Positions 1-18,755 of a DNA stretch of 36,107 nt are shown one piece after another. Under the pieces are notes generated by a model. It saw only the letters and a program-made list of their open reading frames with translations, did not search any database and was not told the origin of the DNA. Source of the stretch: a virus; IMG/VR virus record IMGVR_UViG_3300045988_117996; one strand, written 5' to 3'. The translations under genes and the position numbers were made by a program. The first letter of the stretch is position 1; each line of letters opens with the position of its first letter.

Positions 1-119
1 AGGCGCGCAGGAGGGCCTTCTCGACCTGCTCGATGTTGTTCTGCCGTATCTCGATGCACTCGGCGGTATCCAGCTTCGCGGCGTTTACGATCTCCTCGGT
101 GATGAGGGTCCCGTGCCGC
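1..119. repeat. Terminal direct repeat copy 1 (119 bp, identical to 35989-36107)
   Basis: Base-by-base comparison of both window ends shows 119/119 identity. Typical of an assembly overlap of a circular or terminally redundant molecule. Confidence 0.95.
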
Positions 120-731: not shown

Positions 732-2471
732 TCAACCTCTTGTCGTCAGGCACTCGTCGATAAGATCGCCAAACTCGGCGTTGTCGACTCGCGCGAACTC
801 CGTCTCCTCGGCCTTGATTATACCAAAATACCAGCTCACGTCCTCATCGCCGCTCTGTGGGTCTATGAACTTGATAGCGTTTCCCGTCTTTTCCGCAACG
901 AAAACGTGTCGTCCGCTCTTGCCGCAAAGCGCCTGGTCCCAGGTAACGGAGACCTCGGCCCTCGCGTCCCCGTTTATCGCAAGGAGGAATGACATTATTT
1001 CTTTCTCCGGCTTATCGCCACCACGTTTCCAAGTGGCCCCCGGAAACACCTTTTTGTACGACTCGGCGCGCGCGAAGGGGTCATATGCCGATATTTTCCC
1101 CCACTTGTTCATCTTAACCGGCTTCGCAACGACGTCGAGCCCACGCCGTCTCGCCTCATACGCCGGAACGCACCTTTGGCAGTTGTACGAGTACCTGCCG
1201 TCTTTGTCCTTCTTTGTCTTAAAGTTCGGGTTGACCTTGGCAAGGTCGGAGCCCGCGGAATGCTCGCCCTTGATCTCCTTGAAAACGCGCCGACCGTTGA
1301 CAATGGGCGTCGAACCGGGCGCAAGCGCCGTGTCCAACACCTTCTGCTGGTCGCCGGCACTCATCTTGCGGAACGAGCCGGACGGTATGCCGTAGTCCTC
1401 GAGCTGCCGCGAGAGCCGCTTTCGCGCCTCGGTCTTGGACACGCCTGCCGCATCCAGCTTGCGCTTGGTTCCGGGCATTTCCATGAACTCGGAGATGGTG
1501 CGGTTCGCGGGCTTGGTGCCGTTGACGGCGGGCTTGCCCGCCTTCCATTCCTCGTAGGTCATGCCCTCGGGCAGGCGGCTGAACCGCTCGCCGTCGAGCA
1601 CGTCGAGTCCGTCACAGCACGCCACCAGCGTGCAGCGGCAGTTCGCCGTCTCGGCATACGGCGCCTCCGGGTCGCCGGGATAGCGGCACCCGTTGCTGAA
1701 CTTCTCGCCGACCTCGACCTTCTCGCGGTCAATCTTTCTGTGGCTCGATCGCGTGCGCAGGTCGAGCGTCGCCACCCATTCCTGCTGCACCTTGATACCG
1801 AGCCCCTTGGCCCTCTTGTAGCTGTCGACACGCCCGGCGTTCTCCGCCGCAGTCGTCGAGGTGCGCGCCAAACGCACCGCCGCCGCGCGGTTCGCCCCCG
1901 TCACGTTCTGCATGCGCTTGGCTATCTTTGGTATCGACTCGCCGAGCAGCACGCCCTGCGTGATCTGGTTGGCGATGAGCCGGCGGTTCCACGCCACGTC
2001 CTTGACGACGTTGACGGACGGCTTTGGCAGGTAGCTGTCGTGGTCGGTGAGCAGTCTCTGAACGGTCGAGGCGTCCTGCAGTGCGTAGGCCGTGTCAACG
2101 CCAACGGCGCTCTCGACCTGCCACGTGCCGTAGTTGTAGTTCTCGGCGTAGACCTCGGGCAGCCTGCCCTCGATGGCGGCGGCCGCGACGACGTTCGCGT
2201 GCGTCATTGCCTCGGCGCACTGCTTGAGCACGATTCGGTAGCGCCTGCCCGCCGCGATCTTCCCGCTTCGCCAAGACCTGTATTGCGCCTTGGTGATCTC
2301 GCCGGCCTCAAGCCGCTCGCGCATCTTCTCGTCGTCAGCCTCGAACTGCGCCAGATAGCGCTTGAGGTTGGCGTAGGCCGTCTTGCTCGCCTCGCCGTAC
2401 ACTCCCGCCACCTCGCGCTCGAACGCCCGAATCTCGGCGTCTGAGAACTCGTGAGCGCTATCCTTCGCCAT
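732..2471 (-). CDS. Minor head protein (Mu F / SPP1 gp7 domain) fused to a C-terminal papain-fold toxin-like domain
   Basis: MuF region: NRAAAVRLARTSTTAAENAGRVDSY...LDLRTRSSHR...ANCRCT. C-terminus: VNPNF..YSYNCQRCVPAYEARRRG...GRHVFVAE..IKFIDPQSG (Cys-His-Asp order). Start moved to ATG 2471 because GGAGG lies 6 nt upstream. Confidence 0.8.
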   Translation of the reverse strand: MAKDSAHEFSDAEIRAFEREVAGVYGEASKTAYANLKRYLAQFEADDEKMRERLEAGEITKAQYRSWRSGKIAAGRRYRIVLKQCAEAMTHANVVAAAAIEGRLPEVYAENYNYGTWQVESAVGVDTAYALQDASTVQRLLTDHDSYLPKPSVNVVKDVAWNRRLIANQITQGVLLGESIPKIAKRMQNVTGANRAAAVRLARTSTTAAENAGRVDSYKRAKGLGIKVQQEWVATLDLRTRSSHRKIDREKVEVGEKFSNGCRYPGDPEAPYAETANCRCTLVACCDGLDVLDGERFSRLPEGMTYEEWKAGKPAVNGTKPANRTISEFMEMPGTKRKLDAAGVSKTEARKRLSRQLEDYGIPSGSFRKMSAGDQQKVLDTALAPGSTPIVNGRRVFKEIKGEHSAGSDLAKVNPNFKTKKDKDGRYSYNCQRCVPAYEARRRGLDVVAKPVKMNKWGKISAYDPFARAESYKKVFPGATWKRGGDKPEKEIMSFLLAINGDARAEVSVTWDQALCGKSGRHVFVAEKTGNAIKFIDPQSGDEDVSWYFGIIKAEETEFARVDNAEFGDLIDECLTTRG

Positions 2472-2517
2472 GCGCCGCCTCCAATCGTCGGCACGCATGG
2501 TCGCCCGCGCATAACGG

Positions 2518-2549: not shown

Positions 2550-2660
2550 CTACTCGCCGTCTGCCTCTAGCATCTGGCGCACCTCGTCGCGCCAGCGCTC
2601 GGGAACGCTCTCGAGCGTGCGCTTGCCGCTTTTCACGGCGCGGTAGTAGATCTTCGCCAA
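2550..2660 (-). CDS. Small 36-aa protein resembling the short XkdX/CD1375-type peptides found after tail-fibre genes
   Basis: Not in the ORF track. TTG start 8 nt after GGAGG. Translates to LAKIYYRAVKSGKRTLESVPERWRDEVRQMLEADGE. Family assignment is from memory. Confidence 0.4.
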   Translation of the reverse strand: MAKIYYRAVKSGKRTLESVPERWRDEVRQMLEADGE

Positions 2661-2661
2661 G

Positions 2662-3003
2662 TTACTCACCTCCAACGATGTCGCCGAGCTCGAGAAGGGC
2701 CGCCTGCGAGTCGGCGACCTGCTGCTGGAGCGATGCGATCTGCTCCTCCATGCTCATGCCGTCCGCCTCGTGAGCCGCCCAGACGGTGTCAAAGTCAGCC
2801 TTTGTGCCCTCGACTGTCAGTTCGCCAGTCGGGTCGGTGAAGTGCAGCTCCTCGTAGGTGAACACCTTCACCTTGACGGAACCGCCCTCGCCGCCCTGCT
2901 CCTCGCGCTCGCCCTCGGCGATGCCGCGGCGCAGCCAGACGTCGGTCCCCGCAATCTCGACCGTCTCGGGCCTCTCGCCCGTTCGCTCCGACTTCACAAC
3001 CAT
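2662..3003 (-). CDS. Hypothetical acidic protein (113 aa), fibre-module associated
   Basis: Strong RBS AGGAGGAAAAAT before ATG 3003. C-terminal helix EEQIASLQQQVADSQAALLELGDIV. Confidence 0.7.
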   Translation of the reverse strand: MVVKSERTGERPETVEIAGTDVWLRRGIAEGEREEQGGEGGSVKVKVFTYEELHFTDPTGELTVEGTKADFDTVWAAHEADGMSMEEQIASLQQQVADSQAALLELGDIVGGE

Positions 3004-3013
3004 ATTTTTCCTC

Positions 3014-4045
3014 CTAACCCACGGCCCTCGCCGCGTTGAATATGCACCGCTTAGCGTTCATCTGGTGCTCCATGACGGCCGTTTTCAACCAGCCCCAGTA
3101 AGAGCACACGCGCCTCGCCAAGCGCTCGGTGCGCCTGCGCATGTAGCGCGCGAACGCGCGTCGCAGTCGTTTCCAGAGCCTCTTTCGCAAGTCGACCCGG
3201 CGCCCGCGAGCGCACCAGATGCGATAGCCCGCGAAGTCGATGGGCTCGGCGCCGTTGCGCCTCACCTTCCACGGCTTCAGTGACAATCCTAGCCGCCCCA
3301 AAACGCGCGCGGCGATGGCCGCGGCCTTCCTGAGCGAGCGCTTTGAGTTGCCGAGAAAATAGCCGTCGTCGGCGTACCACACCTGGCATCCCGCGAGCCT
3401 CACGCGCTTGCCGCGCCGCTCCTTCGCCGCCTCCTCGACCGCGTGGTACGCGAACGAGATCACGAACGCCGCCAACCGAAGCGACAGGTAGCTGCCGAGG
3501 ATAAGGACGCCGTTCATCGTCGACAGCAGCGAATGGAGCAGGTAGAGGACTTGGCTGTTCTTGACGTAGCGCGCCACCAGACCCTCCACTATCTCCGTCC
3601 GCATCGAGCCGTAGCAGTTGCGGATGTCGACGTGTACGTGGTAGGCGAAGCGGTGAACCTCGCGCCTGAGCTTGCGCATCCCCAGCGCCGCGCCCTTGCC
3701 CTTGACGCCGCTCGACACCTGCCAGAAGCCGACCTTGGCGGCAAGGAGCGGCTCGAGCGCCCCAACGCACAGGTAGTTGCACACCTGCCGCTTGATGCTC
3801 TCGACGCTTATCTCGCGCAGCTTGCCGCTGTTCGGGTCGTGTTTCAGATAGGTTCGGATGGGCTCGAACGCAAGCGTCTCGGTCGAGAGCTCTAGCCAGA
3901 TGCGGTCGACGAACGCCGTCTCGGTGCCGTATTCGTCGGCGACGCGCCAGCCGTTCTCCTTGCCGGAGTCGCTTTTCTTCCATCGGTGCAGGGCCTCGAC
4001 GACGCTTCTGCGCGTGAACTCGAGGCCCTTGCAGTAGGTTTTCAT
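3014..4045 (-). CDS. DGR reverse transcriptase (343 aa)
   Basis: RT motifs VDIRNCYGSM (A), LILGSYLSL (B/4), WYADDGYF (C), LGLSLKPWK, FAGYRIW. Lies 157 bp downstream of the TR. Confidence 0.9.
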   Translation of the reverse strand: MKTYCKGLEFTRRSVVEALHRWKKSDSGKENGWRVADEYGTETAFVDRIWLELSTETLAFEPIRTYLKHDPNSGKLREISVESIKRQVCNYLCVGALEPLLAAKVGFWQVSSGVKGKGAALGMRKLRREVHRFAYHVHVDIRNCYGSMRTEIVEGLVARYVKNSQVLYLLHSLLSTMNGVLILGSYLSLRLAAFVISFAYHAVEEAAKERRGKRVRLAGCQVWYADDGYFLGNSKRSLRKAAAIAARVLGRLGLSLKPWKVRRNGAEPIDFAGYRIWCARGRRVDLRKRLWKRLRRAFARYMRRRTERLARRVCSYWGWLKTAVMEHQMNAKRCIFNAARAVG

Positions 4046-4202
4046 AGATCAAAGCTCTTTCTGTCTGTCATACGAGCGTTCGCCTTGCGGCTACCAGCCC
4101 GTGAGCCTTGCGGACAAATTTCACTCAAAGGAGTCAGGCTGAGCCGCGTCCCGCCAGAAAGCGGCGGGCGCGGTAGACACGGTGCGAGTAGAGATTTATA
4201 GA
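4046..4202 (-). other. TR-RT spacer, candidate spacer (Sp) part of the DGR RNA, with a GC hairpin at 4144-4173
   Basis: No ORF. Hairpin ccgcg(t)cccgcc / ggcgggcgcgg with loop agaaagc. Also 9-bp direct repeat gccttgcgg at 4082 and 4105. Confidence 0.45.
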
Positions 4203-4315
4203 CAGAAAGCCGGGAGACGAAGTTCCAAGTGGCCCTACCGGACCTGTTCCTCGAGTTCGCGTAACGAAGACCGGCATTCGAGCCGTTCCTCAGGTTGCCG
4301 AGGAACTGAACCAGA
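4203..4315 (-). repeat. DGR template repeat (TR), 113 bp
   Basis: Gap-free alignment to 4416-4528. 16 of its 19 coding-strand adenines differ in the VR. Non-coding location. Confidence 0.9.
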
Positions 4316-4392
4316 AACCAGCGCCGCCCTCACCGTGAATCCCTGTTTGGGGTTAGGAGGGGGCCAGTCCCCTCTCAGGGCTACGCCCTGAT

Positions 4393-6018
4393 TCACCCCC
4401 GGCTACGGCCCGTAGCAGAAAGCCGGGAGACGAAGCTCCAAGCGGCCCCACCGGACCGGGCCAACGAGTCCGCGCAACGAAGACCGGCACCCGAGCCGAG
4501 CCCCAGGTAGCCGAGGAACCGAACCAGACGGATCGTGCCCTTGACTTTGCCGCCGGAGGTGTCGAAGTAGAAGTAGTCACCGACACCGGTCGTCGCCGAG
4601 CCGCCGAGCCCCTTTCCCAAGATGAGGCCGTTGACGAACTGGATGTCGAGCATGTAGCCATCTGCCGTCGGCATGCACGCCGCCGTCGGGGTCACCCCGT
4701 CCGCCACGGCGTTCTTCTTCTCATTGCGTGTGTCGGGGTTGACCGCGATGCCGAAACCCGTGCCGTCGGAAACGAAGAGCGTATCGCCCATGAACTCCCA
4801 CAGGCCCAGCCCCGTCTCGACGCCGCCGACCTTGAACGGATGCTTGCCGTCCTTCGCCACCTGGCCGTCGCCCACGAGGGCATCGGTGTTGCCCGTGCAC
4901 CACGGCGCACTCTGGAGCCATGTGTTCACGGTCGTGTCGAACGCCTTGGCGACGTCCATGAGAAGCGCCACGTTGCCGTCTGCGAGCGTCTCCTTGCCGC
5001 CGACGACCGCGCCGTCGAACACGTCGTACGCCGCCGCGGCGCCTCGGTCTGGGCACGTGGTGCCCGTGTCGGTGCCGTACATCATCGACGCACCCACGGG
5101 AATCTTCGCCGCCTGCTCGGCGGTGACGACCACGCGCGTGACGCCTGTCTCGGCGAGCGCGGGGTGGATCTGGATGTTGAAGTCCGTGCAACCCGGGAAG
5201 TCCACCTGGGAGGACTTGCAGAGCGTCTTGGTCAACTGGTGGAAGTTGATATACCACTGGTCATAGACGCTCATGCCCGAGTAGCCCGTGGTCGCGGTCT
5301 TGCAAAGGTCGACGAGCGAGTCGTGCGACGTCGTGCGGTTGGCGACCTTCGCGCCCGAGACGGAGCGCGGGCGCCCGTCGGCGTCGATGCTCATGGGATA
5401 CGTCGGCGTCAGCATGTACGGTCGCAGCGTGCCGTCCGGCAGCAACGCCTTGGGGTTCGGCTGCGAGCCGCTGAATCGGCTGTCGGACCACGAGACGAGC
5501 AGGTTGCCGTTCGTCAGCACCTCGACCGCCTGCCACACGACCGGCGCGATCTCGTAGACGTTGTTGCCGTGTCCGTTGTCCACGCGCGAGAAGCCGTAGT
5601 CGACGCCGTCGATGGCCTCGACCCACGGCACGCCGTCGGCGTCGGCACCGGCGTTGGCGGACACGTGGAACCACGGGCCGCCCTCGGCGTCGAACGGGTC
5701 GACAGCCGCGCTCGTCGCCGTCGCGGGCACGAACTCGGTGGAGGCCACGTGCTTCGCGGCAGCGCTCATGGGCTGGATGTCGGTGGGGCTGCCCGCCGGG
5801 ATGAGGAACGTGTACACCAGCCCCGTCTTGTGCTTGTCGACCATCGCGGCGACGGTCTCGTTCTTATAGCGCCCGGTCGAGGCGTCGCGCTCGAGCGTCT
5901 TCTGGTCGCCAAGGTTCTTCACCGCGCCGACAAGCGCCCACACCGCCTCGTCCGATGCCAGCGGGTCCGCGTACTCGAACCCCTCGGTTGCCTGCTCGGC
6001 TGTCTGCGTATCGGCCAT
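4393..6018 (-). CDS. DGR variable (target) protein, putative receptor-binding/fibre protein with a C-type-lectin-like variable C-terminus (541 aa)
   Basis: VR occupies the last ~38 codons (..LVRFLGYLGLGSGAGLRCADSLARSGGAAWSFVSRLS..). ATG 6018 abuts the stop of 6019..6924. Confidence 0.9.
   Translation of the reverse strand: MADTQTAEQATEGFEYADPLASDEAVWALVGAVKNLGDQKTLERDASTGRYKNETVAAMVDKHKTGLVYTFLIPAGSPTDIQPMSAAAKHVASTEFVPATATSAAVDPFDAEGGPWFHVSANAGADADGVPWVEAIDGVDYGFSRVDNGHGNNVYEIAPVVWQAVEVLTNGNLLVSWSDSRFSGSQPNPKALLPDGTLRPYMLTPTYPMSIDADGRPRSVSGAKVANRTTSHDSLVDLCKTATTGYSGMSVYDQWYINFHQLTKTLCKSSQVDFPGCTDFNIQIHPALAETGVTRVVVTAEQAAKIPVGASMMYGTDTGTTCPDRGAAAAYDVFDGAVVGGKETLADGNVALLMDVAKAFDTTVNTWLQSAPWCTGNTDALVGDGQVAKDGKHPFKVGGVETGLGLWEFMGDTLFVSDGTGFGIAVNPDTRNEKKNAVADGVTPTAACMPTADGYMLDIQFVNGLILGKGLGGSATTGVGDYFYFDTSGGKVKGTIRLVRFLGYLGLGSGAGLRCADSLARSGGAAWSFVSRLSATGRSRG
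4402..4416 (-). promoter_or_regulatory. Hairpin abutting the 3' end of the VR (6-bp stem, 3-nt loop), absent next to the TR
   Basis: gctacg ggc cgtagc on the coding strand. Its position matches the VR-flanking hairpin/cruciform element described for the Bordetella phage DGR. Confidence 0.4.
4416..4528 (-). repeat. DGR variable repeat (VR), 113 bp
   Basis: See TR. 17 mismatches, 16 at TR adenines. Lies inside the 3' end of ORF 4393..6018. Confidence 0.9.
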
Positions 6019-6924
6019 TTAGGCACCTACCTTTCGCATTTGGCAAATCTTGCCGTTTACCTTCTTGAGTCCCAGCGCTGTCACGGCAGCCGCCGAGTCG
6101 ATAATCGACTGGTAGTTCAGGGCTGCCGTCTTGGCGTCCTTGAGCGCCGCCTGCGCGTCGGCGAGGGCCTTGGTCGAGTCCTTCTCGCGCTTCTGCTCGG
6201 CGGTCTTGCGCCCCGTCTCCGCCTCCTTGCGCTCCGTCTCGGAGGTCTTGCGCTCGGACTCGGTCCGCTTGCGCTCGGACTCGGAGTCGGCGCGTCCTTT
6301 CTCAGCCGTTTCGACAGAAGTCTTGAGCTGCTTGAACTCGTTGTTGACCTTGTTCACGCCAGCCGCCGCGTCCGTCGCGGGCTTCTTGAGCTCCGCGATC
6401 TGCTCGGCGGTGAGGTCACTGTATCTCAGCGCGTCACCCTTCGGCACGCCGACGACCAGCACGTTGCCCTCCATCGTCGCCGTTGCCTCCGAGCCCGAGG
6501 CGAGCGTCGTGGCGCGTGCCCCCTTGACCTCGGCGGCGACAGCCATGTCGCGCGCGGCCTCCGCCGCCTTCTGCGCGGCCTTGGCCTCGTCTCGCGCCGT
6601 CTCTGCGTCCTTGATGGTGCGCTGGTCGCTCGGCTCGTAGATGTACTCGGCGGGCTTGGCTCGCCTCTTTACGTCCCAGAGCGCCTCGATGCGCGTGCGT
6701 CCGCCGTATGCCTCGTCCGTGATGTATGCCCATGCGTACACGCGCCCAGCCGCCTGGAGCAGCTCGTCGGGAATCTTCGCCTTGCTGTCGGCCACCTCGA
6801 CCGTGTAGCACGTCCCCGTGGTCGACTTGGCGAAATGCACCTGCTCGCAGCCGACAACCTCGACCTCGCGCCCGGTGTCCCACTGCCACAGCTCGCCGTC
6901 AAGCACCTGCAATGCCGCCATCAC
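6019..6924 (-). CDS. Fibre/baseplate-associated protein (301 aa): BppU_N-like N-terminus, coiled-coil with heptad repeats
   Basis: ATGA overlap with the portal stop. N-terminus ELWQWDTGREVEVVG..IPDELLQAAGRVYAWAYI resembles baseplate upper protein N-domains (from memory). Repeats ESERKRT/ESERKTS/ETERKEA. Confidence 0.6.
   Translation of the reverse strand: MMAALQVLDGELWQWDTGREVEVVGCEQVHFAKSTTGTCYTVEVADSKAKIPDELLQAAGRVYAWAYITDEAYGGRTRIEALWDVKRRAKPAEYIYEPSDQRTIKDAETARDEAKAAQKAAEAARDMAVAAEVKGARATTLASGSEATATMEGNVLVVGVPKGDALRYSDLTAEQIAELKKPATDAAAGVNKVNNEFKQLKTSVETAEKGRADSESERKRTESERKTSETERKEAETGRKTAEQKREKDSTKALADAQAALKDAKTAALNYQSIIDSAAAVTALGLKKVNGKICQMRKVGA
6205..6290 (-). repeat. 21-bp imperfect tandem repeat (about 4 copies) encoding the E-S/T-E-R-K heptads
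   Basis: Unit cttgcgc... recurs at 6205, 6226, 6247 and 6268. Confidence 0.7.
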
Positions 6925-8339
6925 TCATCACCTTCCTCGTCGTTGTCGTCGTCCTCGTCGCCCTCCTGGGCACCCTTCGCGTTAGCCGCCAGGGCGGGCG
7001 GCAGCGCTGCCATGCGCTCCTCCTGCTCCCGCTGCTTGCGCTCCAAAATCTTCGCCCTCTCGTCGGGCGTGATGTTCGGCAGCTTTCGTAGAATCGTCTC
7101 GTCGTCCAGATACTCGGCCTCCAGGCACACGGTCTCGACCTGCTCCTTGGTGTTGCTGATGCGAGTGCGCGTGAACACGGGCGTGTCCTCGATGCCCTGC
7201 AACGCAAGGATGTCCATGATACCCTCGCGGATGTGGCGCTCAAACTCGGAGGCCTCCTCGTCCATCGGCTGGTATGCCGCGTCGATATGGTCGTTGGTCG
7301 CCCCCGCCGCGATGGTGTGGACGTCCAGCGCGCCGAAGTCCTCGTAGATGTCGGCCTTGATCTGCGCCAGCGTCTCCTTGCGGCCCTCGACGGGCACATC
7401 CTGCGTGTACGGCGTCACGGACTGCCCCTGCTCGGCGTCGACCTCGGCCACGTGCGTCAGCTTGAGCTTCGCCCGCCACAGGTCGAGGTCCCTGTCGTCC
7501 ATGCCGCCGGCTCCGTTGATGAGCCAGTAGATCTGCGCGCAGTCGCGCGTGTCGTTCACCAGGCCGCTCTTGATCAGGTCGTAGGCGTCGATGCTCTCGC
7601 GCATGCCGACGAGCGTGCTCTGGTGCGCGTCGCTGCCCCAGACCGCCACGATGGGCAGGCGGGAGTAGTTCTCCGCATCGACGGCCAGCTTCATCCCGTC
7701 CGCCGGTATCTCCCGATACGTAACCTTGTAGGCGCGCTTGGCATCGGCCACCTCGAAGTCGAAGCCGCTGCCGCCCGACACCATCTCCGTGTAGCCGTCC
7801 TGCTCGTAGAGGGTCGCGTGCCACGGGTGGTCGGAGTCGAGCCGCCAGAACCTCACGCCGGCGTATAGCGCCCCCGAGTACTCGTCCCACACCGGGCAGA
7901 ACTCATCGGCGGTGAACACGTCGATGTGGTCGAGGTTCCAAAACGGAAATGACACACCGTGGATGAGCGCCTTGAGCCCCATCTCCATGACATCGTCGTC
8001 GAAGCGGTCGCCAAGCCCCTCCTTGGTCGTGTCCTTGCCGCCCGCCGAGACGTCCACGAAGCTCACGCCCTTACCAAGCGAGTACGTGCAGCGCTGGACG
8101 TTTAGGCGCTTGAACAGGTTACTCGCCAGCCTCAGCTTCGAGGCTGTGAAGTCCTCGGCCTCGGCACCGGAGCACGAGTAGATCTTCTGCACGAAACGGT
8201 TGATCGTGACATTGTGCTGGCGGTAGTACTCGTTCGCGGTGACGGCGTTGCGGTACATCTCGCTCGACATGTGCCGCTCGATGGCATCTGCCGCGAATGC
8301 CGTCGCCGACGCCGCCGCCTTGAGGTCGCCATCGGTCAC
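6921..8339 (-). CDS. Portal protein (SPP1 gp6-like), 472 aa
   Basis: Follows TerL. The long ORF 6921..8861 overlaps TerL, so the start is moved to GTG 8339 (AAAGG 7 nt upstream). Acidic C-terminal tail. Confidence 0.8.
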   Translation of the reverse strand: MTDGDLKAAASATAFAADAIERHMSSEMYRNAVTANEYYRQHNVTINRFVQKIYSCSGAEAEDFTASKLRLASNLFKRLNVQRCTYSLGKGVSFVDVSAGGKDTTKEGLGDRFDDDVMEMGLKALIHGVSFPFWNLDHIDVFTADEFCPVWDEYSGALYAGVRFWRLDSDHPWHATLYEQDGYTEMVSGGSGFDFEVADAKRAYKVTYREIPADGMKLAVDAENYSRLPIVAVWGSDAHQSTLVGMRESIDAYDLIKSGLVNDTRDCAQIYWLINGAGGMDDRDLDLWRAKLKLTHVAEVDAEQGQSVTPYTQDVPVEGRKETLAQIKADIYEDFGALDVHTIAAGATNDHIDAAYQPMDEEASEFERHIREGIMDILALQGIEDTPVFTRTRISNTKEQVETVCLEAEYLDDETILRKLPNITPDERAKILERKQREQEERMAALPPALAANAKGAQEGDEDDDNDEEGDE

Positions 8340-8362
8340 CAAAGGACCTTTAGACAAAGCCG

Positions 8363-9559
8363 CTACCTCCCTCCAAAGAATGGGTTTACCTGCTCTTTCG
8401 CAGGCTTGTACATGCGCATGGTCGCCACGCCGTAACGGAGCGCGTCGCAGCTGTGGTCCTCGACCTTGACGGGCCTGTCGCCATCCGCCTTGGCGTCCCA
8501 GCAGTAGCCGCCGAGCTCGCCTATCAGCCCCGCGCAGGCGTCGGAGATGCGCACCGTGCCGTTGCCCAGGCACACCCCCGTCTCTCGTATGCCGTCCGCG
8601 ACGTCGTTGCGCCCCTTCTTGGTCTTGAACCCGGCCTGCCGCATCGCGGCGATGAAGCTCGTGGCGCTCGGGTCGATGATGAACGTGGGCGGCTTGCCCA
8701 GCCCGCGCACGAAGTCGGCCATGTCGGCCACGTAGTCGGCGTCCGTCTTCTGGTGCCCCGTGTCGCGGCCCGAGTAGCGGTACTCGTCCACCGCGTGCCA
8801 CACCTCGCCGTCGTACGCCCACAGCAGCGCCGCGAAGGCATTCTGCGTGCCGTAGTCGCACGACACGACATATTTGACGGCGCGGCCGTCATAGCGGCTC
8901 TCGAGCGCCTTCTCCCACTCGGGGTAGACCAGGCCCTCGGCCAGCGTCCACTTGCCCAAGATGTAGCGGTCGTAGTACACGCCGCTGCCGTAGTCCTTGA
9001 TGAGGGCTTCGATGACATCCGGTGCCAGCGCACCGTCCCAGATCGTGTAGTCCTGCCTGTAGATGTCGCTGTCGCCGTCGAGGAACCGCTTGAACCAGTG
9101 GTTCGGGCTGTCGGGGTTACAGGTACCGTCGAAGCAGCTGTGCTCGCAGCGCAGGCGGCTCTTGAGCATCTGGAACACGTCTTCGCTCCACGTGGCGACC
9201 TCATCGCCGTAGACCCACTCGAACGTGGCGCCCTGAATCTTGGATACGCTTGTCTTCTTATCCGCCCCGAGGCAGTAGACCTTGCGCCCGAAAATCTGGG
9301 CCGTGTTGTCCCGCCCGATCTGGCTGACGACGTCTTCGCTGTAGAGCGAGCGCATCGGCTCGAGGATGTTGCGCTCGAGCGTCGAGCGGGTGTTCCCGAT
9401 CATCACCGCCAGCCCCTCGCCCCTCATGGCGAGAAGCCTCTGCGGTATGGTCACGGCTATGTCGACGTAGCTCTTGCCCGAGCCCGTCGCCCCGCACTTC
9501 ACGTTGTAGCGGTGCGTGCAGTTGGCGAGGTACTCGCGCTGCATCCTCGTGAGCGGCAT
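8363..9559 (-). CDS. terL: Terminase large subunit (PBSX/Terminase_3-like)
   Basis: Walker A GATGSGKS and a nuclease-domain C-terminus. Sits between terS and portal. Confidence 0.95.
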   Translation of the reverse strand: MPLTRMQREYLANCTHRYNVKCGATGSGKSYVDIAVTIPQRLLAMRGEGLAVMIGNTRSTLERNILEPMRSLYSEDVVSQIGRDNTAQIFGRKVYCLGADKKTSVSKIQGATFEWVYGDEVATWSEDVFQMLKSRLRCEHSCFDGTCNPDSPNHWFKRFLDGDSDIYRQDYTIWDGALAPDVIEALIKDYGSGVYYDRYILGKWTLAEGLVYPEWEKALESRYDGRAVKYVVSCDYGTQNAFAALLWAYDGEVWHAVDEYRYSGRDTGHQKTDADYVADMADFVRGLGKPPTFIIDPSATSFIAAMRQAGFKTKKGRNDVADGIRETGVCLGNGTVRISDACAGLIGELGGYCWDAKADGDRPVKVEDHSCDALRYGVATMRMYKPAKEQVNPFFGGR

Positions 9560-13879: not shown

Positions 13880-14111
13880 GTCGCGCCTCCCAGTAGTTGC
13901 ACCTCGCGAGCCCCTGCGTGGTGTGCACGAAGTCGGGGCAACGCATGCACGTGTACCGTTTGCGGCTCTCGCCGGACGCCGTCATGACCGCCTCGCTCAC
14001 GACGCAGAACCCGCACGTCTCGCAGCGGGCACTGCGCGGCCCGTCGTCGTAGATGCTCGCGGACCCCTTCGGTCTGCCCATGTTCTCGTTCCTCTCGTCG
14101 TCCAAGCTCAT
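13869..14111 (-). CDS. Zinc-finger small protein (80 aa)
   Basis: ATGA start at 14111. CETCGFC ... CMRC. Confidence 0.55.
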   Translation of the reverse strand: MSLDDERNENMGRPKGSASIYDDGPRSARCETCGFCVVSEAVMTASGESRKRYTCMRCPDFVHTTQGLARCNYWEARHEG

Positions 14112-14980
14112 GACGCCCTCCTCTCGCATGCGGCCCTCGCATCCAGCAGACGCCGCGCGTCCTGGTACGCCTTGAGCGCCACCGGGTCGGCGGTCGTCCC
14201 CCTCGGGGCCTTCACCTTCGCCGGGTCGATGCCCGGATATTCCTCGCGCCACCTGCGCTCGAGCTCCGCCCTCGTCTGCTCGGGCGTCCTCGTCGGCTTG
14301 AACGTGGCAGCCTCGACCTCCGAGGCGGTGGGCTTGCCCCTCGCCCGGTCGTCGGCGTCGATGCGCTTCTGGCGCCTGGACCAGTCGAGCGCGAGGGCGC
14401 CCCAGTTGCTCACCGGCTGGCCGTTGCCCTTGACCCATCCCTGAGACTCGAAGTAGGCCCAGAAGGCGTCCGGGTCGCCGCTCAGGCAGTTGGCGCCGAA
14501 GTAACCGCGGGCCTCATCGAGGGTCGGCGGCTCGAACTCGGGCGGCGCGGCGGGGGCATCGCCCCCATCACAGGACAGCTCAGCACAATCCAGTTCAGGA
14601 CAGTTCAGGACAGGACAGGTTAGGTTAGGGTTTTCACTTTCGGAAACCTGCGTTTCGGGTTTGTCGGAAACTGGTTTCCCGTTTGAAAAACATAGGTTTT
14701 CACTTTCGGAAACCTGCGTTTCGGGTTTGTCGGAAACTGGTTTCTTGCGCGGGCGGCCGCCCTTGCCGCCCCTGCCGCGCGCGTCCTTGGAGTTGTCGAT
14801 GGCGTTCTTCATCGCCTTGAAAACGCGGCGGAGGTGCTTCGGGAGGTCGGCCTCCACGCCGTGCAGCCCGTACATCATGATCGCGTCGGCGAGCATCGCG
14901 CGGTCGCGCAGGTCCTCGGGGTCGCTCGCGTCGAAGTCGTCGTAGACCTCGGCGAAGCTGTCGAACACGGTAAAGGCCAT
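14108..14980 (-). CDS. Putative replication initiator/replisome organizer with internal repeats (290 aa)
   Basis: Position after ssb. Basic linker GRGGKGGRPRKK. Duplicated KPVSDKPETQVSESEN. C-terminus FWAYFESQGWVKGNGQPVSNWGALALDWSRRQ is typical of phage replisome-organizer/DnaD-like proteins (from memory). Confidence 0.5.
   Translation of the reverse strand: MAFTVFDSFAEVYDDFDASDPEDLRDRAMLADAIMMYGLHGVEADLPKHLRRVFKAMKNAIDNSKDARGRGGKGGRPRKKPVSDKPETQVSESENLCFSNGKPVSDKPETQVSESENPNLTCPVLNCPELDCAELSCDGGDAPAAPPEFEPPTLDEARGYFGANCLSGDPDAFWAYFESQGWVKGNGQPVSNWGALALDWSRRQKRIDADDRARGKPTASEVEAATFKPTRTPEQTRAELERRWREEYPGIDPAKVKAPRGTTADPVALKAYQDARRLLDARAACERRAS
14629..14744. repeat. Two perfect 50-bp direct repeats (14629-14678, 14695-14744; period 66 bp), flanked by micro-repeats at 14591-14630
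   Basis: ggttttcactttcggaaacctgcgtttcgggtttgtcggaaactggtttc occurs twice. cagttcagga x2 and ttagg x2 lie just upstream. Confidence 0.9.
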
Positions 14981-15090
14981 CAGAACCACCCCCATAGAAG
15001 TGAAGAGAAGAACAGGAAACCCGCGGAGAAGGAGGCGGCGAACAGGGCCGCCTCCCAGTGGTCGCGGATGATGTCGGGTACGTGCCTCAT
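14980..15090 (-). CDS. Small hydrophobic protein (36 aa), translationally coupled on both sides
   Basis: Not in the ORF track. TAATG start at 15090, TGATG stop/start at 14980. Translates to MRHVPDIIRDHWEAALFAASFSAGFLFFSSLLWGWF. Confidence 0.35.
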   Translation of the reverse strand: MRHVPDIIRDHWEAALFAASFSAGFLFFSSLLWGWF

Positions 15091-15566
15091 TAGAACGGCA
15101 CGTCCTCGTCGTAGAACTCGGACTGCGGGACCGCGGCGTAGGCCTGCTGGGCGCTCAACTGCGGCGCGGCCTGCGCCTGTGGCTGCATGGGCACCGTGTT
15201 CGCGAGGCTCTGCTGCGGCTGGGCCTGCGTCTGCCCCTCACGGCGCACCATGACCTCGATCTCGTCGACGATAACCTCGAGCTTGCTGCGCTTCTGGCCG
15301 TCGCGCTCCCAAGAGCTGTAGCGCAGCTTGCCCTCGATCGCGACCTTCATCCCCTTGGCGAGGAAACGGCCAACGGCCTCGGCGCGGTTGCCGAACATCG
15401 TGCAGTCGACGAAGTTGGGGTAGTCCTCCCACTCGCCGGTCTGCGCGTTGCGGCGGCGGTCGTTTACCGCAACACCGAAGGACAGGACCTGCGTCCCGCC
15501 CGCCGTGGCGCGCAGCTCCGGGTCGCGGGTCAGGTTGCCGCTGATGTTCACTCGGTTGATGCTCAC
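15090..15566 (-). CDS. ssb: Single-stranded DNA-binding protein
   Basis: OB-fold N-terminus VNISGNLTRDPELR..., Q-rich linker, acidic tip DEDVPF. GTGA start at 15566. Confidence 0.9.
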   Translation of the reverse strand: MSINRVNISGNLTRDPELRATAGGTQVLSFGVAVNDRRRNAQTGEWEDYPNFVDCTMFGNRAEAVGRFLAKGMKVAIEGKLRYSSWERDGQKRSKLEVIVDEIEVMVRREGQTQAQPQQSLANTVPMQPQAQAAPQLSAQQAYAAVPQSEFYDEDVPF

Positions 15567-15904
15567 TGCCCGTCCTCCCTCGCGGTCATGCAGCCCTTGA
15601 TGGCATCGACGAGGCGCGGCCCCTGCATGTAGCCAAGGCCGCTCACGCGGCGGCCGTCGCGGATATGGCACGCCTCGACGATCTTCTGCGCCGTGACCGG
15701 GCCGATGCCCGGGAACGAGCGGGCGAACTCCTCGACCTTGAGCCCCTGCGCGATGGGCGCCTCGATGGCGGCGTCGGGCGGGATGTTCCCCGCCTTGCAC
15801 GCCGCCTTGAACGCGGCGCGCTCGCGGCGCGTGTGGATGGCCCTCGCCATCGCCTCCTTGCGCTGCTCCGGCGTTCGGGTCGGCGGCAGGTTCTTCTTCT
15901 CCAT
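15563..15904 (-). CDS. Actinobacterial-type integration host factor (mIHF-like)
   Basis: TPEQRKEAMARAIHTRRERAAFK...FPGIGPVTAQKIVE...RRVSGLG parallels mycobacterial mIHF (LTDEQRAAALEKAAAARRARAELK...LPKVGKVKAQEIM...RRLRGLG). Confidence 0.65.
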   Translation of the reverse strand: MEKKNLPPTRTPEQRKEAMARAIHTRRERAAFKAACKAGNIPPDAAIEAPIAQGLKVEEFARSFPGIGPVTAQKIVEACHIRDGRRVSGLGYMQGPRLVDAIKGCMTAREDGQ

Positions 15905-15907
15905 GTC

Positions 15908-16906
15908 CTACATCCTCTCGACGTATCCGTGAATGTCGTTCTCGACCATGACGGCCCTCACGCGGCGCAGCTCGTCTGCCGTGGCGCACTCGATGACCAC
16001 GCGGTAGCCCCTCTGCGGTGCCGGGGCCGCATCCTCGGCCGCATCCGGCTCGGGGCGCGACGGGACCACCCGCACGCACCTCGGCACGCCCAAGGGCGGC
16101 TCAGGCTCGGGCTGCTCGTCGGGCAGCGACTCGGGGTCGAGCGGCAGCGGCTCGGGCTCCGGCTCGGGCTCCGGCTCGGGCTCCGGCGCTGTCGCCTGCT
16201 CGTAGGTCGCCGCGAGCGCGGCGGCCTTGGCGACCTCCTCGCGGTGCGCGGCGACCGCAGCCGCCACCTCGCCCGAGTCCGCCGGCAGGGTCCTCGCCCA
16301 CCACGCGACGGCCCACGCCTTCTCGGACTCGTCCGCGTAGTCGAGGCCGCTGACGAACTTGAACTGGTGCAGCAGCTCGCCCACGCGGCACTCGATGATG
16401 TTCTTGGCCTTGACCTCGCCGAAGCTCGCGTTGAGCCACTTGTCGTCGGCGATGCGCTCGTATGGCACCAGCGGCCCCATCTCGCCCGCAAGGTCGTAGT
16501 AGTGGCCCTTGAGCGCGGCGAGGCGGCGGGCCCTGCACTCGCCGTCGTATCGGTCGATTTCGGCCTTGTACTCATCGGAGAGCTTGTCGATTGGCGCCGT
16601 GATCTCGCCTATGGTCTCGTCGAACGTCTTTAGCAGGTCTCTGTACTTCTTCTTCGCGGCCTTGCGCTGCGCCTCGATGGGCTTCTTCACGTCGTTGACC
16701 GCCGCGCGGTACTTCTTCGCCGCCTTGAAGTCCTCGTCATTCTCGATGCGCTTGACGTCCACGTAGTCCGCCAGCTTCTCGTCCACGTTCTTCTTGAGCT
16801 TCGCCAGCTTGTCCTCGAGCGTGTCGTCGATGGCGAGAGACGCCACCAGCGTGTCGAAGTCTTCCTCGAGCGGCACGGCCTCGACCGCCAAAACCTCGCC
16901 TGCCAT
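15908..16906 (-). CDS. DUF1351-like recombination-module protein with a PE-repeat linker (332 aa)
   Basis: Coiled-coil, K-rich N-half typical of the gene that accompanies phage RecT/Erf. Family assignment tentative. Confidence 0.5.
   Translation of the reverse strand: MAGEVLAVEAVPLEEDFDTLVASLAIDDTLEDKLAKLKKNVDEKLADYVDVKRIENDEDFKAAKKYRAAVNDVKKPIEAQRKAAKKKYRDLLKTFDETIGEITAPIDKLSDEYKAEIDRYDGECRARRLAALKGHYYDLAGEMGPLVPYERIADDKWLNASFGEVKAKNIIECRVGELLHQFKFVSGLDYADESEKAWAVAWWARTLPADSGEVAAAVAAHREEVAKAAALAATYEQATAPEPEPEPEPEPEPLPLDPESLPDEQPEPEPPLGVPRCVRVVPSRPEPDAAEDAAPAPQRGYRVVIECATADELRRVRAVMVENDIHGYVERM
16149..16184 (-). repeat. 12-bp perfect tandem repeat x3 (ggctcgggctcc) encoding (PE)n
   Basis: Read directly at 16149-16160, 16161-16172 and 16173-16184. 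Confidence 0.9.
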
Positions 16907-17805
16907 CAGAAGCCTCCCAGAAGGTCGTCGTCGGTCGCGTACTCGGCGGGCGCGGGCTCATAGGCGGGCGCGGGCTCCGGCTCGGGGGCGGCGGGCTCGG
17001 GCCGCGTGGCGCGGGCCGCGATCTCCTCCTCCATCCAAGAGGCCGCGCGGCGCGCCTGCATGAGCGTCATGTCGTGCATGGAGCCCGACGTGCAGCCCAC
17101 GGCGGCGCAGATGGCCGCCATGGCCCCGGCGCTGTCGAGCCCGGTCGCCGCCATAAACGGCTTGAACAGGTCGCGCACGGGCTGCAGGTCGGCCACGGGC
17201 TCGACGCTCTCGGCCTCGACGGCCTGAGTGCCGGCGCGCATGTCGCGTTCGACCTTCTGGTCCATCTCCTCGCCCGTGTACATCCCGCCGAACTCGTCGG
17301 GGTAGGCCAGGCGCCACGCGCCGGCCTTGGCGCACTTCTCGATCATGACGCCCGGCATCTTCGCCCAGTTGCTCTTGCCGGTGCTGTAGTCGCTAAGCGC
17401 CAGCTCCACGTAGGCCGGCTCCTTGCCGTCCTTGAACTGCACCTCGGCCCAGCCGCCGAGCAACTGCTCGCCAACCTGCTTGTAGACGGCGCTGCCGCGC
17501 TTCTTGACGATCTGCCCCTCGCGCATCACCACGACGCCGCTCTTGATGCCGCCGTAGCTCTCCTGACGGTTGGCGCGGCGGTTGAACACCTGATAGCTAG
17601 TGATGATGCTCGCCGGGGCGTCCCTGTACTTCACCAGGTAGACCTCCTTGGTGAAGGGGTTCAGGTGCTGGCGGTTGCACAGCTCGATGCACAGCGCCAG
17701 TTCGCTTTCGGTCGCGTTCGGGCACAGGCGCTCGCGGATGTCCTGCGAGGTGAACTTGACGGGCATGCCCGCATCGTCCTTGAACTCGATGACCTCGTTA
17801 CTCAT
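16906..17805 (-). CDS. recT: RecT/Bet-family single-strand annealing protein
   Basis: ELALCIELCNRQHLNPFTKEVYLVKY...KSNWAKMPGVMIEKCAKAGAWRLAYP. Confidence 0.85.
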   Translation of the reverse strand: MSNEVIEFKDDAGMPVKFTSQDIRERLCPNATESELALCIELCNRQHLNPFTKEVYLVKYRDAPASIITSYQVFNRRANRQESYGGIKSGVVVMREGQIVKKRGSAVYKQVGEQLLGGWAEVQFKDGKEPAYVELALSDYSTGKSNWAKMPGVMIEKCAKAGAWRLAYPDEFGGMYTGEEMDQKVERDMRAGTQAVEAESVEPVADLQPVRDLFKPFMAATGLDSAGAMAAICAAVGCTSGSMHDMTLMQARRAASWMEEEIAARATRPEPAAPEPEPAPAYEPAPAEYATDDDLLGGF

Positions 17806-18094
17806 CGACGCTCACCTCGCATCCGTAGAGCTTGGAGATCGTGGCGACGGCGCCGTTCTCGGCGTAGATGTCCTCGCACTTCTTGCCGTACGCGATGATG
17901 ACCGCCAGGAAGTCGCGGTCGAACTCGATGGGCTCCTCGTCCATCAGCGCGGGCGCGACCGCCATGCCGTAGGCGACTCCGCGGAGCACCGCGGGGTCGA
18001 CGTCGCGCTCGAGCGCCTCGGCGTTGAGCTCCGTGTTGATGAGGACGTTGCCCACGGCCTGCCTCATGAGCTCCTTGAATGCCTTTCGCTTCAT
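17798..18094 (-). CDS. Hypothetical protein (98 aa)
   Basis: RBS GGAGGAAATGTAA before ATG 18094. Confidence 0.6.
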   Translation of the reverse strand: MKRKAFKELMRQAVGNVLINTELNAEALERDVDPAVLRGVAYGMAVAPALMDEEPIEFDRDFLAVIIAYGKKCEDIYAENGAVATISKLYGCEVSVDE

Positions 18095-18553
18095 TTACAT
18101 TTCCTCCGTTTCGTCCCTGCGCCCGGACCACCCGGGCGCAATGGTTATGTCCATGCGCTCGGCCTGCCAACGCACCCTGGGGTGCTTTACCACGTGCAGG
18201 TCGACCACTTGCGCGTCGTCGGCCCAGACGAGCCCGTTGAGCGCGTCCATGACCAGCTTGCCCTCGTTGTCCCCGTCCGGCTTGTAGGTGTCCGGCTCCG
18301 AGCGCACGCGCTTGGGCCGGCTCTCCGGCAGCGGACGGTAGGCGTCGACGTTGAGAATCACCGGCTCGTGCGGGCCGAAGGGCATGGGCTGGATGCCAGC
18401 CTCGGCCATCGCCTCCGCACACGCCGCCGCGATGGCCCGCTCGGCCCTCAGCGTCTCGGTCGGCGTGTACATCCGTGCGTGCCCGCGGTCGAGCCTGTGG
18501 CGCTGCTTGCCCGCCGCGAACATGACGGTGAACGCGAATCGCCCGCCGCTCAC
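18095..18553 (-). CDS. rusA: RusA-family Holliday junction resolvase
   Basis: YKPDGDNEGKLVMDALNGLVWADDAQVVDLHVVK. GTG start at 18553 overlaps the stop of a 12-codon leader ORF. Confidence 0.8.
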   Translation of the reverse strand: MSGGRFAFTVMFAAGKQRHRLDRGHARMYTPTETLRAERAIAAACAEAMAEAGIQPMPFGPHEPVILNVDAYRPLPESRPKRVRSEPDTYKPDGDNEGKLVMDALNGLVWADDAQVVDLHVVKHPRVRWQAERMDITIAPGWSGRRDETEEM

Positions 18554-18588
18554 AGTACCGACCCCTTCTTGCAGTTCATGATCTTCAT
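18550..18588 (-). CDS. 12-codon leader mini-ORF (MKIMNCKKGSVL) coupled to rusA
   Basis: Strong RBS TAGGAGGAACG before ATG 18588. Its TGA overlaps the rusA GTG (GTGA). Confidence 0.3.
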   Translation of the reverse strand: MKIMNCKKGSVL

Positions 18589-18596
18589 CGTTCCTC

Positions 18597-18755
18597 CTAG
18601 TAGTACATCCCGCTCGGCGCGGTGCCCTCGATGGCACCGGCGGCGGCGATGAGGCCGATGAAGATCACGAGGCTCAGGACGCTGCGGGTGCGCTCGGGCA
18701 GCGAGTGCCACCAGTCGGACACCCGGTCGCTAAGCTGCAAAAGAATCACTCCCAT
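18597..18755 (-). CDS. Small membrane protein (52 aa)
   Basis: Not in the ORF track. Translates to MGVILLQLSDRVSDWWHSLPERTRSVLSLVIFIGLIAAAGAIEGTAPSGMYY. Fills the gap between the Xis-like gene and rusA. Confidence 0.4.
   Translation of the reverse strand: MGVILLQLSDRVSDWWHSLPERTRSVLSLVIFIGLIAAAGAIEGTAPSGMYY

Follow-up and report, generated by a model that had tools for sequence, protein, structure and literature searches.

The virus record IMGVR_UViG_3300045988_117996 from IMG/VR, a stretch of 36,107 nt analysed here at its full length and hereafter called the window, carries a diversity-generating retroelement (DGR) with a target gene that contains the variable repeat (VR), a template repeat (TR) and a gene encoding reverse transcriptase (RT). 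Nearly all genes of the window lie on the minus strand. Read in this direction, their order around the DGR is portal, a 301-aa protein, the 541-aa target with its VR, the TR, the RT, two small open reading frames (ORFs) referred to as p113 and p41, and a MuF-type minor head protein (Table 1). The first and the last 119 bp of the window (1-119 and 35989-36107) are the same, and the window thus represents a complete circular phage genome of ~35,988 bp. RT genes 96-99% identical to that of the window are present in chromosomes and metagenome-assembled genomes (MAGs) of ~60 Collinsella species-level genomes, cultured strains included, which identifies the window as a widespread temperate prophage of the gut bacterium Collinsella (Coriobacteriaceae).

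Table 1. Features of the DGR cassette, its RNA elements and neighbouring genes (positions refer to the window)
Feature	Position	Strand	Remarks
DGR reverse transcriptase (RT)	3014-4045	-	343 aa; motif 4 LGSYLSL, motif 5 YADD
DGR target, tail receptor-binding-type	4393-6018	-	541 aa; VR at C-terminus
VR	4416-4528	-	113-nt direct repeat, within 3′ end of target ORF
TR	4203-4315	-	113-nt direct repeat, 19 adenines
VR-TR gap	4316-4415	-	100 bp; two hairpins and 5′ strands of P1 (4342-4345) and P2 (4331-4337)
Two adjacent hairpins after target stop TGA (4393-4395)	4357-4391	-	folded; candidate target-recognition hairpin and/or terminator
TR-RT spacer	4046-4202	-	157 bp; structured RNA
P1	4342-4345 with 4135-4138	-	joins TR-upstream flank to spacer
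P2	4331-4337 with 4178-4184	-	joins TR-upstream flank to spacer; CACGGTG/CACCGTG in the window, CGCGGCG/CGCCGCG in other lineages
Unstructured linker after TR	4185-4202	-	
P3 hairpin	4144-4173	-	variable length
P4 hairpin	4123-4134	-	followed by conserved GAAAU (4118-4122)
P5 stem-loop	4072-4102	-	upstream of CAGARAG and RT start
Conserved CAGARAG	4057-4063	-	before RT start
Rfam RT-18-like segment	4057-4134	-	P4, GAAAU, outer helix, P5
p113	2662-3003	-	113 aa; acidic, pI 4.3; starts 10 nt after RT stop, strong GGAGG site ahead
p41	2550-2675	-	41 aa; XkdX-like, tail-fibre/lysis junction type; phrog_1382, E=4e-8
301-aa protein upstream of target	6019-6924	-	coiled-coil/repeat region; Lys/Glu/Ala-rich repeats, 21-nt tandem units
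Portal	6921-8861	-	
MuF-type minor head protein	732-2498	-	toxin domain at C-terminus (papain-fold glutamine deamidase; PF15644, E=1.6e-10)

A repeat search of the window returned one 113-nt direct repeat pair with 85% identity, the VR copy covering approximately the last 45 codons of the target ORF. Compared on the minus strand, the two copies show 17 mismatches over their 113 positions. Of these, 16 fall on TR adenines (16 of the 19 present), and the only other one is a G>T change beside an A. Among relatives, 75 loci have an RT of at least 95% identity to that of the window and retain the 113-nt pair at unchanged spacing. These 75 loci contain 73 distinct VRs. The VR is changed at 954 of 1345 sites corresponding to TR adenines (70.9%; to G in 460 cases, to T in 385 and to C in 109), compared with 31 of 6530 non-adenine sites (0.47%). 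Confinement of VR diversity to adenines argues for ongoing adenine-specific mutagenic retrohoming and rules out the reading of the locus as a dead element. By this comparative evidence, the DGR is active in nature.

The TR of the window is close to the consensus of the 75 loci and only few TR positions vary, mostly adenines, giving 31 TR variants among the relatives; the adenine bias of these variants suggests occasional self-homing or VR-to-TR conversion. At its 3′ end (4203-4210), the TR reads GCAATCTG in 72 of the 75 relatives, whereas every VR ends with GCTTTCTG. The fixed difference, AA in TR and TT in VR, probably corresponds to the distinction between IMH* and IMH (initiation of mutagenic homing). 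The TR of the window and those of two others among the relatives have the VR-type 3′ end, GCTTTCTG (TT). A further nine near-identical relatives (L009, L021, L035, L038, L039, L041, L134, L136 and L144) are without the VR/TR pair. Three of them, L009, L035 and L041, have a single hybrid repeat at the TR position, which combines VR-like substitutions with a TR-type 3′ end. In these hybrid-repeat relatives ~213 bp are absent, and in L009 the target ORF could be traced on to the RT start. Loss of the pair in the nine relatives reflects either homologous recombination between VR and TR, which destroys the DGR, or collapse of the repeats during assembly.

The RT matches phrog_1423 (E=4e-32) and scores 26.0 bits against RVT_1, under the Pfam gathering threshold of 29.6. 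Its sole sequence match in the PDB is bRT, the RT of BPP-1 (8ub7, E=5.6e-7), with which it shares 22% identity. The alignment places bRT I181-G-S-L-T-S-Q187 over L-G-S-Y-L-S-L of the window RT; hence motif 4, in which the preliminary description had noted Leu instead of Gln, had not been misplaced. Of the signature [I/L/V]GxxxSQ, the window RT retains the LGxxxS part, with a hydrophobic Leu at the position of bRT I181, while the final Gln is replaced by Leu. We then took a census of the motif in 99 sequences, namely, the window RT and those 98 of 119 homologues found by protein search that are 330-420 aa long. The last two residues of motif 4 are SL in 82 of the 99, SM, CL, AL or SC in 10 and SQ in six, with one frameshifted row. 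The carriers of SQ are the most distant (basal) homologues, at 29-41% identity, whereas SL is kept across a clade diverged to ~40% identity, in which the motif takes the form [IL]GSxxSL. Since SL prevails and SQ occurs only in distant members, the Gln-to-Leu replacement is a fixed trait of the clade and not a lesion.

Such a replacement has precedents of its kind. SQ is found in ~90% of DGR RTs, the exceptions being SP, SH, NQ, PA, AQ and VQ (Schillinger 2012, PMC3521204); SL is not among these published exceptions, yet it represents the same kind of variation, and as the exceptions amount to ~10%, SQ is to be considered typical of DGR RTs rather than obligatory. In bRT, the Q187P substitution had no effect on the frequency of adenine misincorporation; I181 and R74, by contrast, did matter (Handa 2021, PMC7826257). 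The Gln-to-Leu change in motif 4 is therefore compatible with adenine mutagenesis. Distant homologues of the RT include RTs of Eggerthellaceae. Many representatives of the RT clusters have no Pfam annotation, and a near-identical copy in public data bears the name "MatK/TrnK amino terminal region". Screens for DGRs that rely on domains would easily miss this RT clade.

In search of Avd, we compared 272 stop-to-stop segments of at least 70 codons, taken from all six frames of the window, with Pfam, using BPP-1 Avd as a positive control. The control scored E=7e-36 and 6e-31, the former with PF22296 (bAvd), and no window segment of at least 70 aa matched this family. For the plus strand, all 23 Pfam families with a match were listed, and no Avd family is among them. 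On the minus strand, no Avd family was matched by the window among the best 25 Pfam families listed and, in NCBIfam, NF033474 matched only the control among the best 25 families listed. When 20 real small genes were scanned singly at E<=10, no Avd or four-helix-bundle family, PF05635 included, was retrieved. Likewise, no Avd Pfam family was found among the called genes of the related contigs examined, and within the cassette there is no Pfam family of avd, HRDC, MSL or CH1 type. By sequence criteria, the phage genome has no Avd homologue.

Neither does the VR-TR gap leave room for one. The preliminary description had put the gaps at 100 and 157 bp, found no ORF in either of them or anywhere for Avd, and considered the flanking products, one acidic (p113) and the other of coiled-coil type (the 301-aa protein), to be unlike Avd; all of this is borne out by the present analysis. 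The repeat search gave exactly these gap lengths. The start-codon ORFs that touch the gaps have lengths of only 47 and 53 aa (coding strand) or 69-71 aa (opposite strand), and all of them overlap the TR or the RT start. Both ORFs on the coding strand (53 aa, 4235-4396; 47 aa, 4134-4277) overlap the TR and were rejected as a positional "avd", being too short and lying in a region explained by conserved RNA helices. A longer stop-free stretch of 95 codons (4045-4329) has no Pfam match. Across 17 lineages of the RT clade, the VR-TR gap measures 92-246 bp with a median of 100 bp, too short in every one of them to accommodate an avd gene. As for p113, its AF2 model (pLDDT 77.7) consists of a four-stranded β-sheet and a long C-terminal helix, with no helical bundle, and Foldseek returned no PDB match below E=0.7. 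Given the β-sheet model, the pI of 4.3 and the lack of Foldseek, Pfam or PDB similarity, p113 was rejected as an Avd. A basic protein of the mIHF type (15563-15904) was also considered as an Avd substitute and rejected, because its gene is part of the replication/recombination module and shows no linkage to the cassette among relatives.

For 15 lineages, an alignment was made that starts 60 nt upstream of the TR and runs to the RT start; from it we derived the RNAalifold consensus and counted pairs explicitly. Five helices, P1-P5, have 97.6% of their cells paired and show compensatory changes in 18 of 28 pairs; none of 500 shuffles reached any of the observed measures, and in shifted (slid) controls ~36% of cells were paired. 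P1 and P2, together 11 bp, enclose the TR and are themselves backed by compensatory changes. According to the cryo-EM study of BPP-1, its RNA has three such elements, among them an Avd-binding stem-loop at the very start of the spacer and an RT-binding stem-loop (Handa et al. 2024, bioRxiv 10.1101/2023.10.23.563531). Here, the TR is directly followed by an unconserved segment of 14-40 nt that folds at 0 to −7.7 kcal/mol across lineages (0.0 in the window), compared with −17.4 kcal/mol for the Avd-binding stem-loop of BPP-1 (Sp1-36). Folding thus revealed no stem-loop of the Avd-binding type directly after the TR in the lineages of the alignment, and an RNA without this element provides independent support for real independence from Avd. 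The other two BPP-1 RNA elements, one of them the RT-binding stem-loop, have plausible counterparts among P1-P5, whose functions are suggested by analogy.

The 3′ half of the spacer resembles RT-18 (Rfam RF03021), a motif catalogued upstream of RT genes. The full model (1-84) aligned to the window with 29.5 bits (E=0.0025 on 331 nt), which is below the gathering score of 41.3 and leaves the segment outside the family as defined by its threshold. The similarity extends over a hairpin, an A-rich strand, a stem-loop with the shared UAGUAG and CGAAA elements and a purine-rich stretch ahead of the RT start. The RT-18 model has no counterparts of the TR-flanking duplex P1/P2 or of P3. A search of six whole related loci against Rfam gave nothing at E<=0.1, the likeness to RT-18 being visible on short inputs only. 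The motif reportedly came first from the 2017 motif survey of Weinberg et al.

The target protein matches phrog_17147, and its C-terminus matches the tail-protein family phrog_5302. For its AF2 model (pLDDT 89.1), the best PDB matches are three chains of TaqVP, the DGR variable protein of Thermus aquaticus (5vf4, E=5.5e-5, probability 1.00), while Mtd (1yu4) is matched weakly and further down the list. Homologues of the target in other phages are fused to an N-terminal BppU_N baseplate domain or to collagen repeats. Two hairpins directly follow the target stop codon, TCAGGGC-GTA-GCCCTGA (4375-4391) and GAGGGG-ACTGGC-CCCCTC (4357-4374). Both are present in all lineages with differing stem sequences, such as CATGGC/GCCATG, TGACGC/GCGTCA and CGGCCGC/GCGGCCG (covariation read by eye). 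The TaqVP-like model, the fusions with BppU_N and collagen repeats, the location in a tail module among relatives and the post-stop hairpins together identify the target as a tail protein of the receptor-binding type with a C-type lectin (CLec) fold, similar to the targets of classical phage DGRs. A related locus without RT, L060, retains in 3440-3560, after the stop codon of its target homologue, the elements GGGGTGAA-hairpin-GAGGGG...CCCC. Either the RT and TR are located elsewhere on this phage, of which the contig covers 5,957 bp, or the hairpins are chiefly a terminator rather than a recognition signal of the DGR.

The two ORFs that follow the RT are conserved along with it. Homologues of p113 and p41 follow the RT in all lineages first inspected. 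The RT is immediately upstream of p113 in 86 of 87 viral-contig loci found through p113, and a p113 HMM matches 172 of 176 stored sequences; of the remaining four, three are control phage records and one is a locus whose sequence breaks off at the RT end. Overall, a p113 homologue is directly after the RT or overlaps it in every informative related locus that has an RT. In L174 (1484-2164), a p113-type N-terminal domain is fused to DUF4376 in a 226-aa protein encoded directly after the RT, and in L175 the HMM matches an uncalled ORF. The family is small: from 1.8 billion proteins, ~70 representatives were retrieved at E<=1e-3. Comparison with Pfam, the PDB and PHROG yielded no assignment for p113, Pfam also being blank on 48 family members, and a tblastn search of p113 against 50,697 phage records gave nothing significant. 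The possibility that p113 is an XkdW was considered and rejected, as no likeness of p113 to XkdW, or to a Pfam family, could be detected.

For p41, tblastn retrieved small ORFs at tail-fibre/lysis junctions of Brevibacillus phage Emery (gp27) and Faecalibacterium phage FP_Brigit. Emery has no RT, and its gene order is tail fibre, small ORF, gp27, holin and lysin. The p41 of the window has no Pfam match at E<=10, and its equivalent in L173 has a weak match to PF09693 (Phage_XkdX). The arrangement seen in L001, L173 and Emery, in which a fibre or receptor-binding gene is followed by an ORF of ~100 aa, another of ~40 aa and lysis genes, is similar to the xkdV-xkdW-xkdX trio of the PBSX type; the difference is that here an inserted TR-RT unit separates the fibre gene from the two small ORFs. 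L060, the exception to the association of p113 with an RT, encodes a target homologue (37% identical) directly followed by homologues of p113 and p41, with no TR or RT. In addition, L040/L041 (6300-6560, corresponding to 2550-2800 of the window) have a breakpoint inside p113 near codon 68, beyond which another allele takes the place of the p113 C-terminal helix and of all of p41, whereas the RT and target are still 96-97% identical; identity resumes exactly at the shared ...DADGE stop. This joint swap ties p113 to p41, and the C-terminal helix of p113 appears to co-vary with p41 as one interaction unit.

Compared with known systems, the locus displays the features of a DGR: adenine-specific differences between TR and VR, an RT of the DGR clade adjoining the TR, a VR at the C-terminus of a CLec protein and a spacer of structured RNA together with a duplex that flanks the TR. 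Of the canonical BPP-1 type (Architecture B), three features are lacking, namely, an avd gene, a stem-loop for Avd binding and Gln as the last residue of motif 4. The TR-flanking duplex (P1/P2) and P4-GAAAU are present and may be equivalent, by analogy, to the BPP-1 element. Like BPP-1 (mtd-VR, avd, TR, brt), the window combines a tail-protein target carrying a C-terminal CLec-type VR with adenine-specific TR-to-VR differences, has a structured spacer of ~150 nt between TR and RT (144 bp in BPP-1, 157 bp here) and encodes an RT of similar size (328 aa in BPP-1, 343 aa here), for which bRT is the nearest solved structure. In contrast to BPP-1, where a 387-bp avd gene lies between VR and TR, the window has a 100-bp gap with no avd, and motifs 4 and 5 contain SL and YADD in place of SQ and YMDD.

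The locus fits Architecture A1, with the order target-VR, TR, RT and no avd, HRDC, MSL or CH1. In a survey of 372 DGRs, avd was present in 74%, and Architecture A, a TR-RT unit with no accessory gene, formed a common class; no remote avd was found in avd-less genomes, and Avd-independent retrohoming was proposed for Architecture A (Wu et al. 2018, NAR 46:11, PMC5758913). The window differs from A1 in that a conserved non-Avd ORF, p113, always comes after the RT, which belongs to a clade with SL, and p113 could be an unrecognised accessory gene. Prophage DGRs of Eggerthella lenta (ert/mtd) provide a further comparison. For one of them, DSM2243phi4, VR change was observed experimentally, and a "possible equivalent of avd" between mtd and TR was proposed on position alone (Buttimer et al. 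2022, PMC8778435). They share with the window a host in the Coriobacteriia, a prophage location, a structural gene that carries the VR at its 3′ end and a TR just upstream of the RT. However, the mtd-TR interval suggested to hold the avd equivalent corresponds in the present clade to 92-246 bp with RNA and hairpin elements and no gene. The preliminary description had presented the locus as a minimal target-VR/TR/RT cassette, without Avd and with Leu for Gln, and this part stands. Its further judgement that the DGR is atypical is overstated, considering that avd is present in only 74% of DGRs, Architecture A has been described, SQ variants make up ~10% and Q187P keeps the misincorporation frequency. 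Nor is the spacing unusual: the ~100-bp gap is the median of the 17 lineages, and 157 bp between TR and RT, occupied by structured RNA, is normal in light of the 144 bp of BPP-1.

Taking these observations together, we consider it probable that the locus is a functional TR-RT DGR without an accessory gene (Architecture A1 of Wu et al. 2018) in a complete and widespread temperate phage of Collinsella. Its transcript would extend over the flank ahead of the TR, the TR itself and the spacer of 157 nt, with the TR enclosed by the covariation-supported pairing of flank and spacer through P1 and P2. The RT-18-like stem-loops P3-P5 probably serve as the platform to which the RT would bind. The RT would copy the TR into cDNA and, judging from its family, misincorporate nucleotides opposite adenines. 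The cDNA would then replace the VR at the 3′ end of the gene for the C-type-lectin-fold tail protein, presumably guided by the common 3′ end of the repeats and the conserved post-stop hairpins. No Avd would be involved: since no Avd homologue was detected and the RNA lacks the post-TR Avd-binding stem-loop, the RT is likely to act on its RNA either alone or with a factor unrelated to Avd.

The nature of such a factor is where an alternative arises. In it, p113 would be a dedicated DGR accessory factor, unrelated to Avd, that binds the very basic RT, or its complex with the RNA, and is required in cDNA synthesis or retrohoming. The preliminary description had named a non-homologous accessory factor as a possibility but had set aside p113, whose family is universally linked to this RT clade. 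Its constant position downstream of or overlapping the RT, although the RT lineages are only 29-36% identical and the phage backbones differ, speaks for such a role, as do the small size of the family and its lack of a known domain, and the start of the window p113 10 nt behind the RT stop with a strong GGAGG. Yet the target family is equally invariant in these loci, and co-occurrence consequently cannot separate a link to the RT from a link to the target. L060 keeps target, p113 and p41 with no RT; p41, the partner of p113, is XkdX-like and found after tail-fibre genes in phages without a DGR; the C-terminal helix was exchanged together with p41 in L040/L041 while RT and target remained nearly the same; and the domain is fused to DUF4376 in L174. 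Moreover, a pI of 4.3 is unlike that of the nucleic-acid-binding Avd (pI ~9.5). The RT-less L060, the XkdX-like p41, the joint swap and the acidity of p113 indicate that p113 is more likely a protein of the tail-fibre module than an RT cofactor, and we regard an accessory role as possible but rather improbable. Much less probable is that Avd or a factor of the HRDC/MSL type acts in trans, supplied by the Collinsella chromosome or by a phage protein too divergent for recognition by sequence. Avd sequences are indeed poorly conserved (PMC5758913), and our genome-wide search used sequence profiles on the phage genome alone. Nevertheless, profile searches of avd-less DGR genomes by Wu et al. found no remote avd (PMC5758913), the same cassette is found in several unrelated phage backbones where nothing else next to it is conserved, the RNA has no Avd-binding stem-loop at the canonical position, and a host factor would have to be universal, given that the prophage resides in ~60 Collinsella species-level genomes.

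Finally, the DGR might be decaying or inactive, with Leu in motif 4 and the missing Avd both signs of lost function. The RVT_1 score under the curated cut-off, the nine related loci with no separate TR and the VR-like 3′ end of the window TR could be taken in this sense. Against it are the 73 different VR sequences of the 75 near-identical prophages, their changes confined to TR adenines, an intact RT ORF with YADD that is 96-99% identical across ~60 host species, the retention of SL over a clade diverged to ~40% identity and the maintenance of RNA helices through compensatory changes, so that decay is hardly credible. Several points weigh nonetheless on our preference for a DGR without an accessory gene. 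Because p113 always adjoins the RT, it could be a required cofactor, which would make the designation "no accessory" wrong. Synthesis of cDNA by the RT without a partner is a prediction. Natural VR diversity is the combined outcome of mutation and selection, and part of the diversity among metagenome-assembled loci could be assembly noise, even if the restriction to adenines argues otherwise. The absence of Avd rests on sequence profiles, p113 being the only small protein checked by structure, and a very divergent Avd fold may have escaped them; the search covered the phage genome. On the minus strand, where the negatives refer to the best 25 families listed, there may also be weak PF05635 or TIGR02436 matches (E > ~1e-4, overlapping non-gene frames).

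The surroundings of the cassette point to its mobility. In the window, the receptor-binding module with the DGR (2550-6924) sits within the head-morphogenesis block, in the interval between portal and MuF. In L001 and L173, the related cassette is found at the end of the tail module, directly before holin and lysin. These differing locations suggest that adaptor, target, TR-RT, p113 and p41 move as a unit between phage backbones. The adaptor would be the 301-aa protein, which probably ties the variable protein to the virion; in L001, the gene at this position has a weak BppU_N match. Within the 301-aa gene, 21-nt tandem units at 6180-6263 encode heptad-like repeats rich in E, R, K, T and S (ERKRTESERKTSETERKEAETGRK), likely a coiled-coil stalk of variable length. 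On the other side of the module, the MuF-type protein has a C-terminal toxin domain, and such MuF-toxin fusions are a known type. After the MuF gene, a small acidic ORF of 88 aa (464-730) has no family match and could encode an immunity protein for the toxin domain. The recombination genes (~14100-18640) include a RecT/Bet-type single-strand annealing protein, SSB and RusA, and the mIHF-like protein mentioned above is a basic, actinobacterial-IHF-like protein of 113 aa (H2TH_5/actino_IHF). Engineered DGR systems integrate cDNA using Collinsella RecT (bioRxiv 10.64898/2026.07.21.739853); by analogy, it is conceivable that the phage's own RecT has a part in retrohoming.

An Avd-less DGR with a variant SQ motif is within the described diversity of these elements; the locus is ordinary in kind and represents a clean, well-supported example. 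What it adds is the clade-wide SL motif, a covariation-supported RNA without an Avd site, strong evidence of natural activity and a conserved candidate protein, p113, the linkage of whose family to the RT clade is the one feature beyond the literature examined. How DGRs work without Avd has been recognised as an open mechanistic question since 2018, and no reconstituted Avd-less DGR was found in the literature searched. The locus offers a favourable test case: the element is compact, with an RNA region of ~1.5 kb and a 343-aa RT, it is demonstrably active in nature and distributed over ~60 Collinsella species-level genomes, and it has a covariation-defined RNA structure and one clear candidate partner protein, p113. 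If the RT works alone, this would be the smallest known DGR engine, a matter of importance for directed-evolution tools that currently need bRT and Avd. If p113 is instead an accessory factor, Avd would have been functionally replaced across a clade of DGRs from phages of Coriobacteriia and related gut phages, which would amount to a new accessory-gene architecture and a different assembly of the RT-RNA complex.

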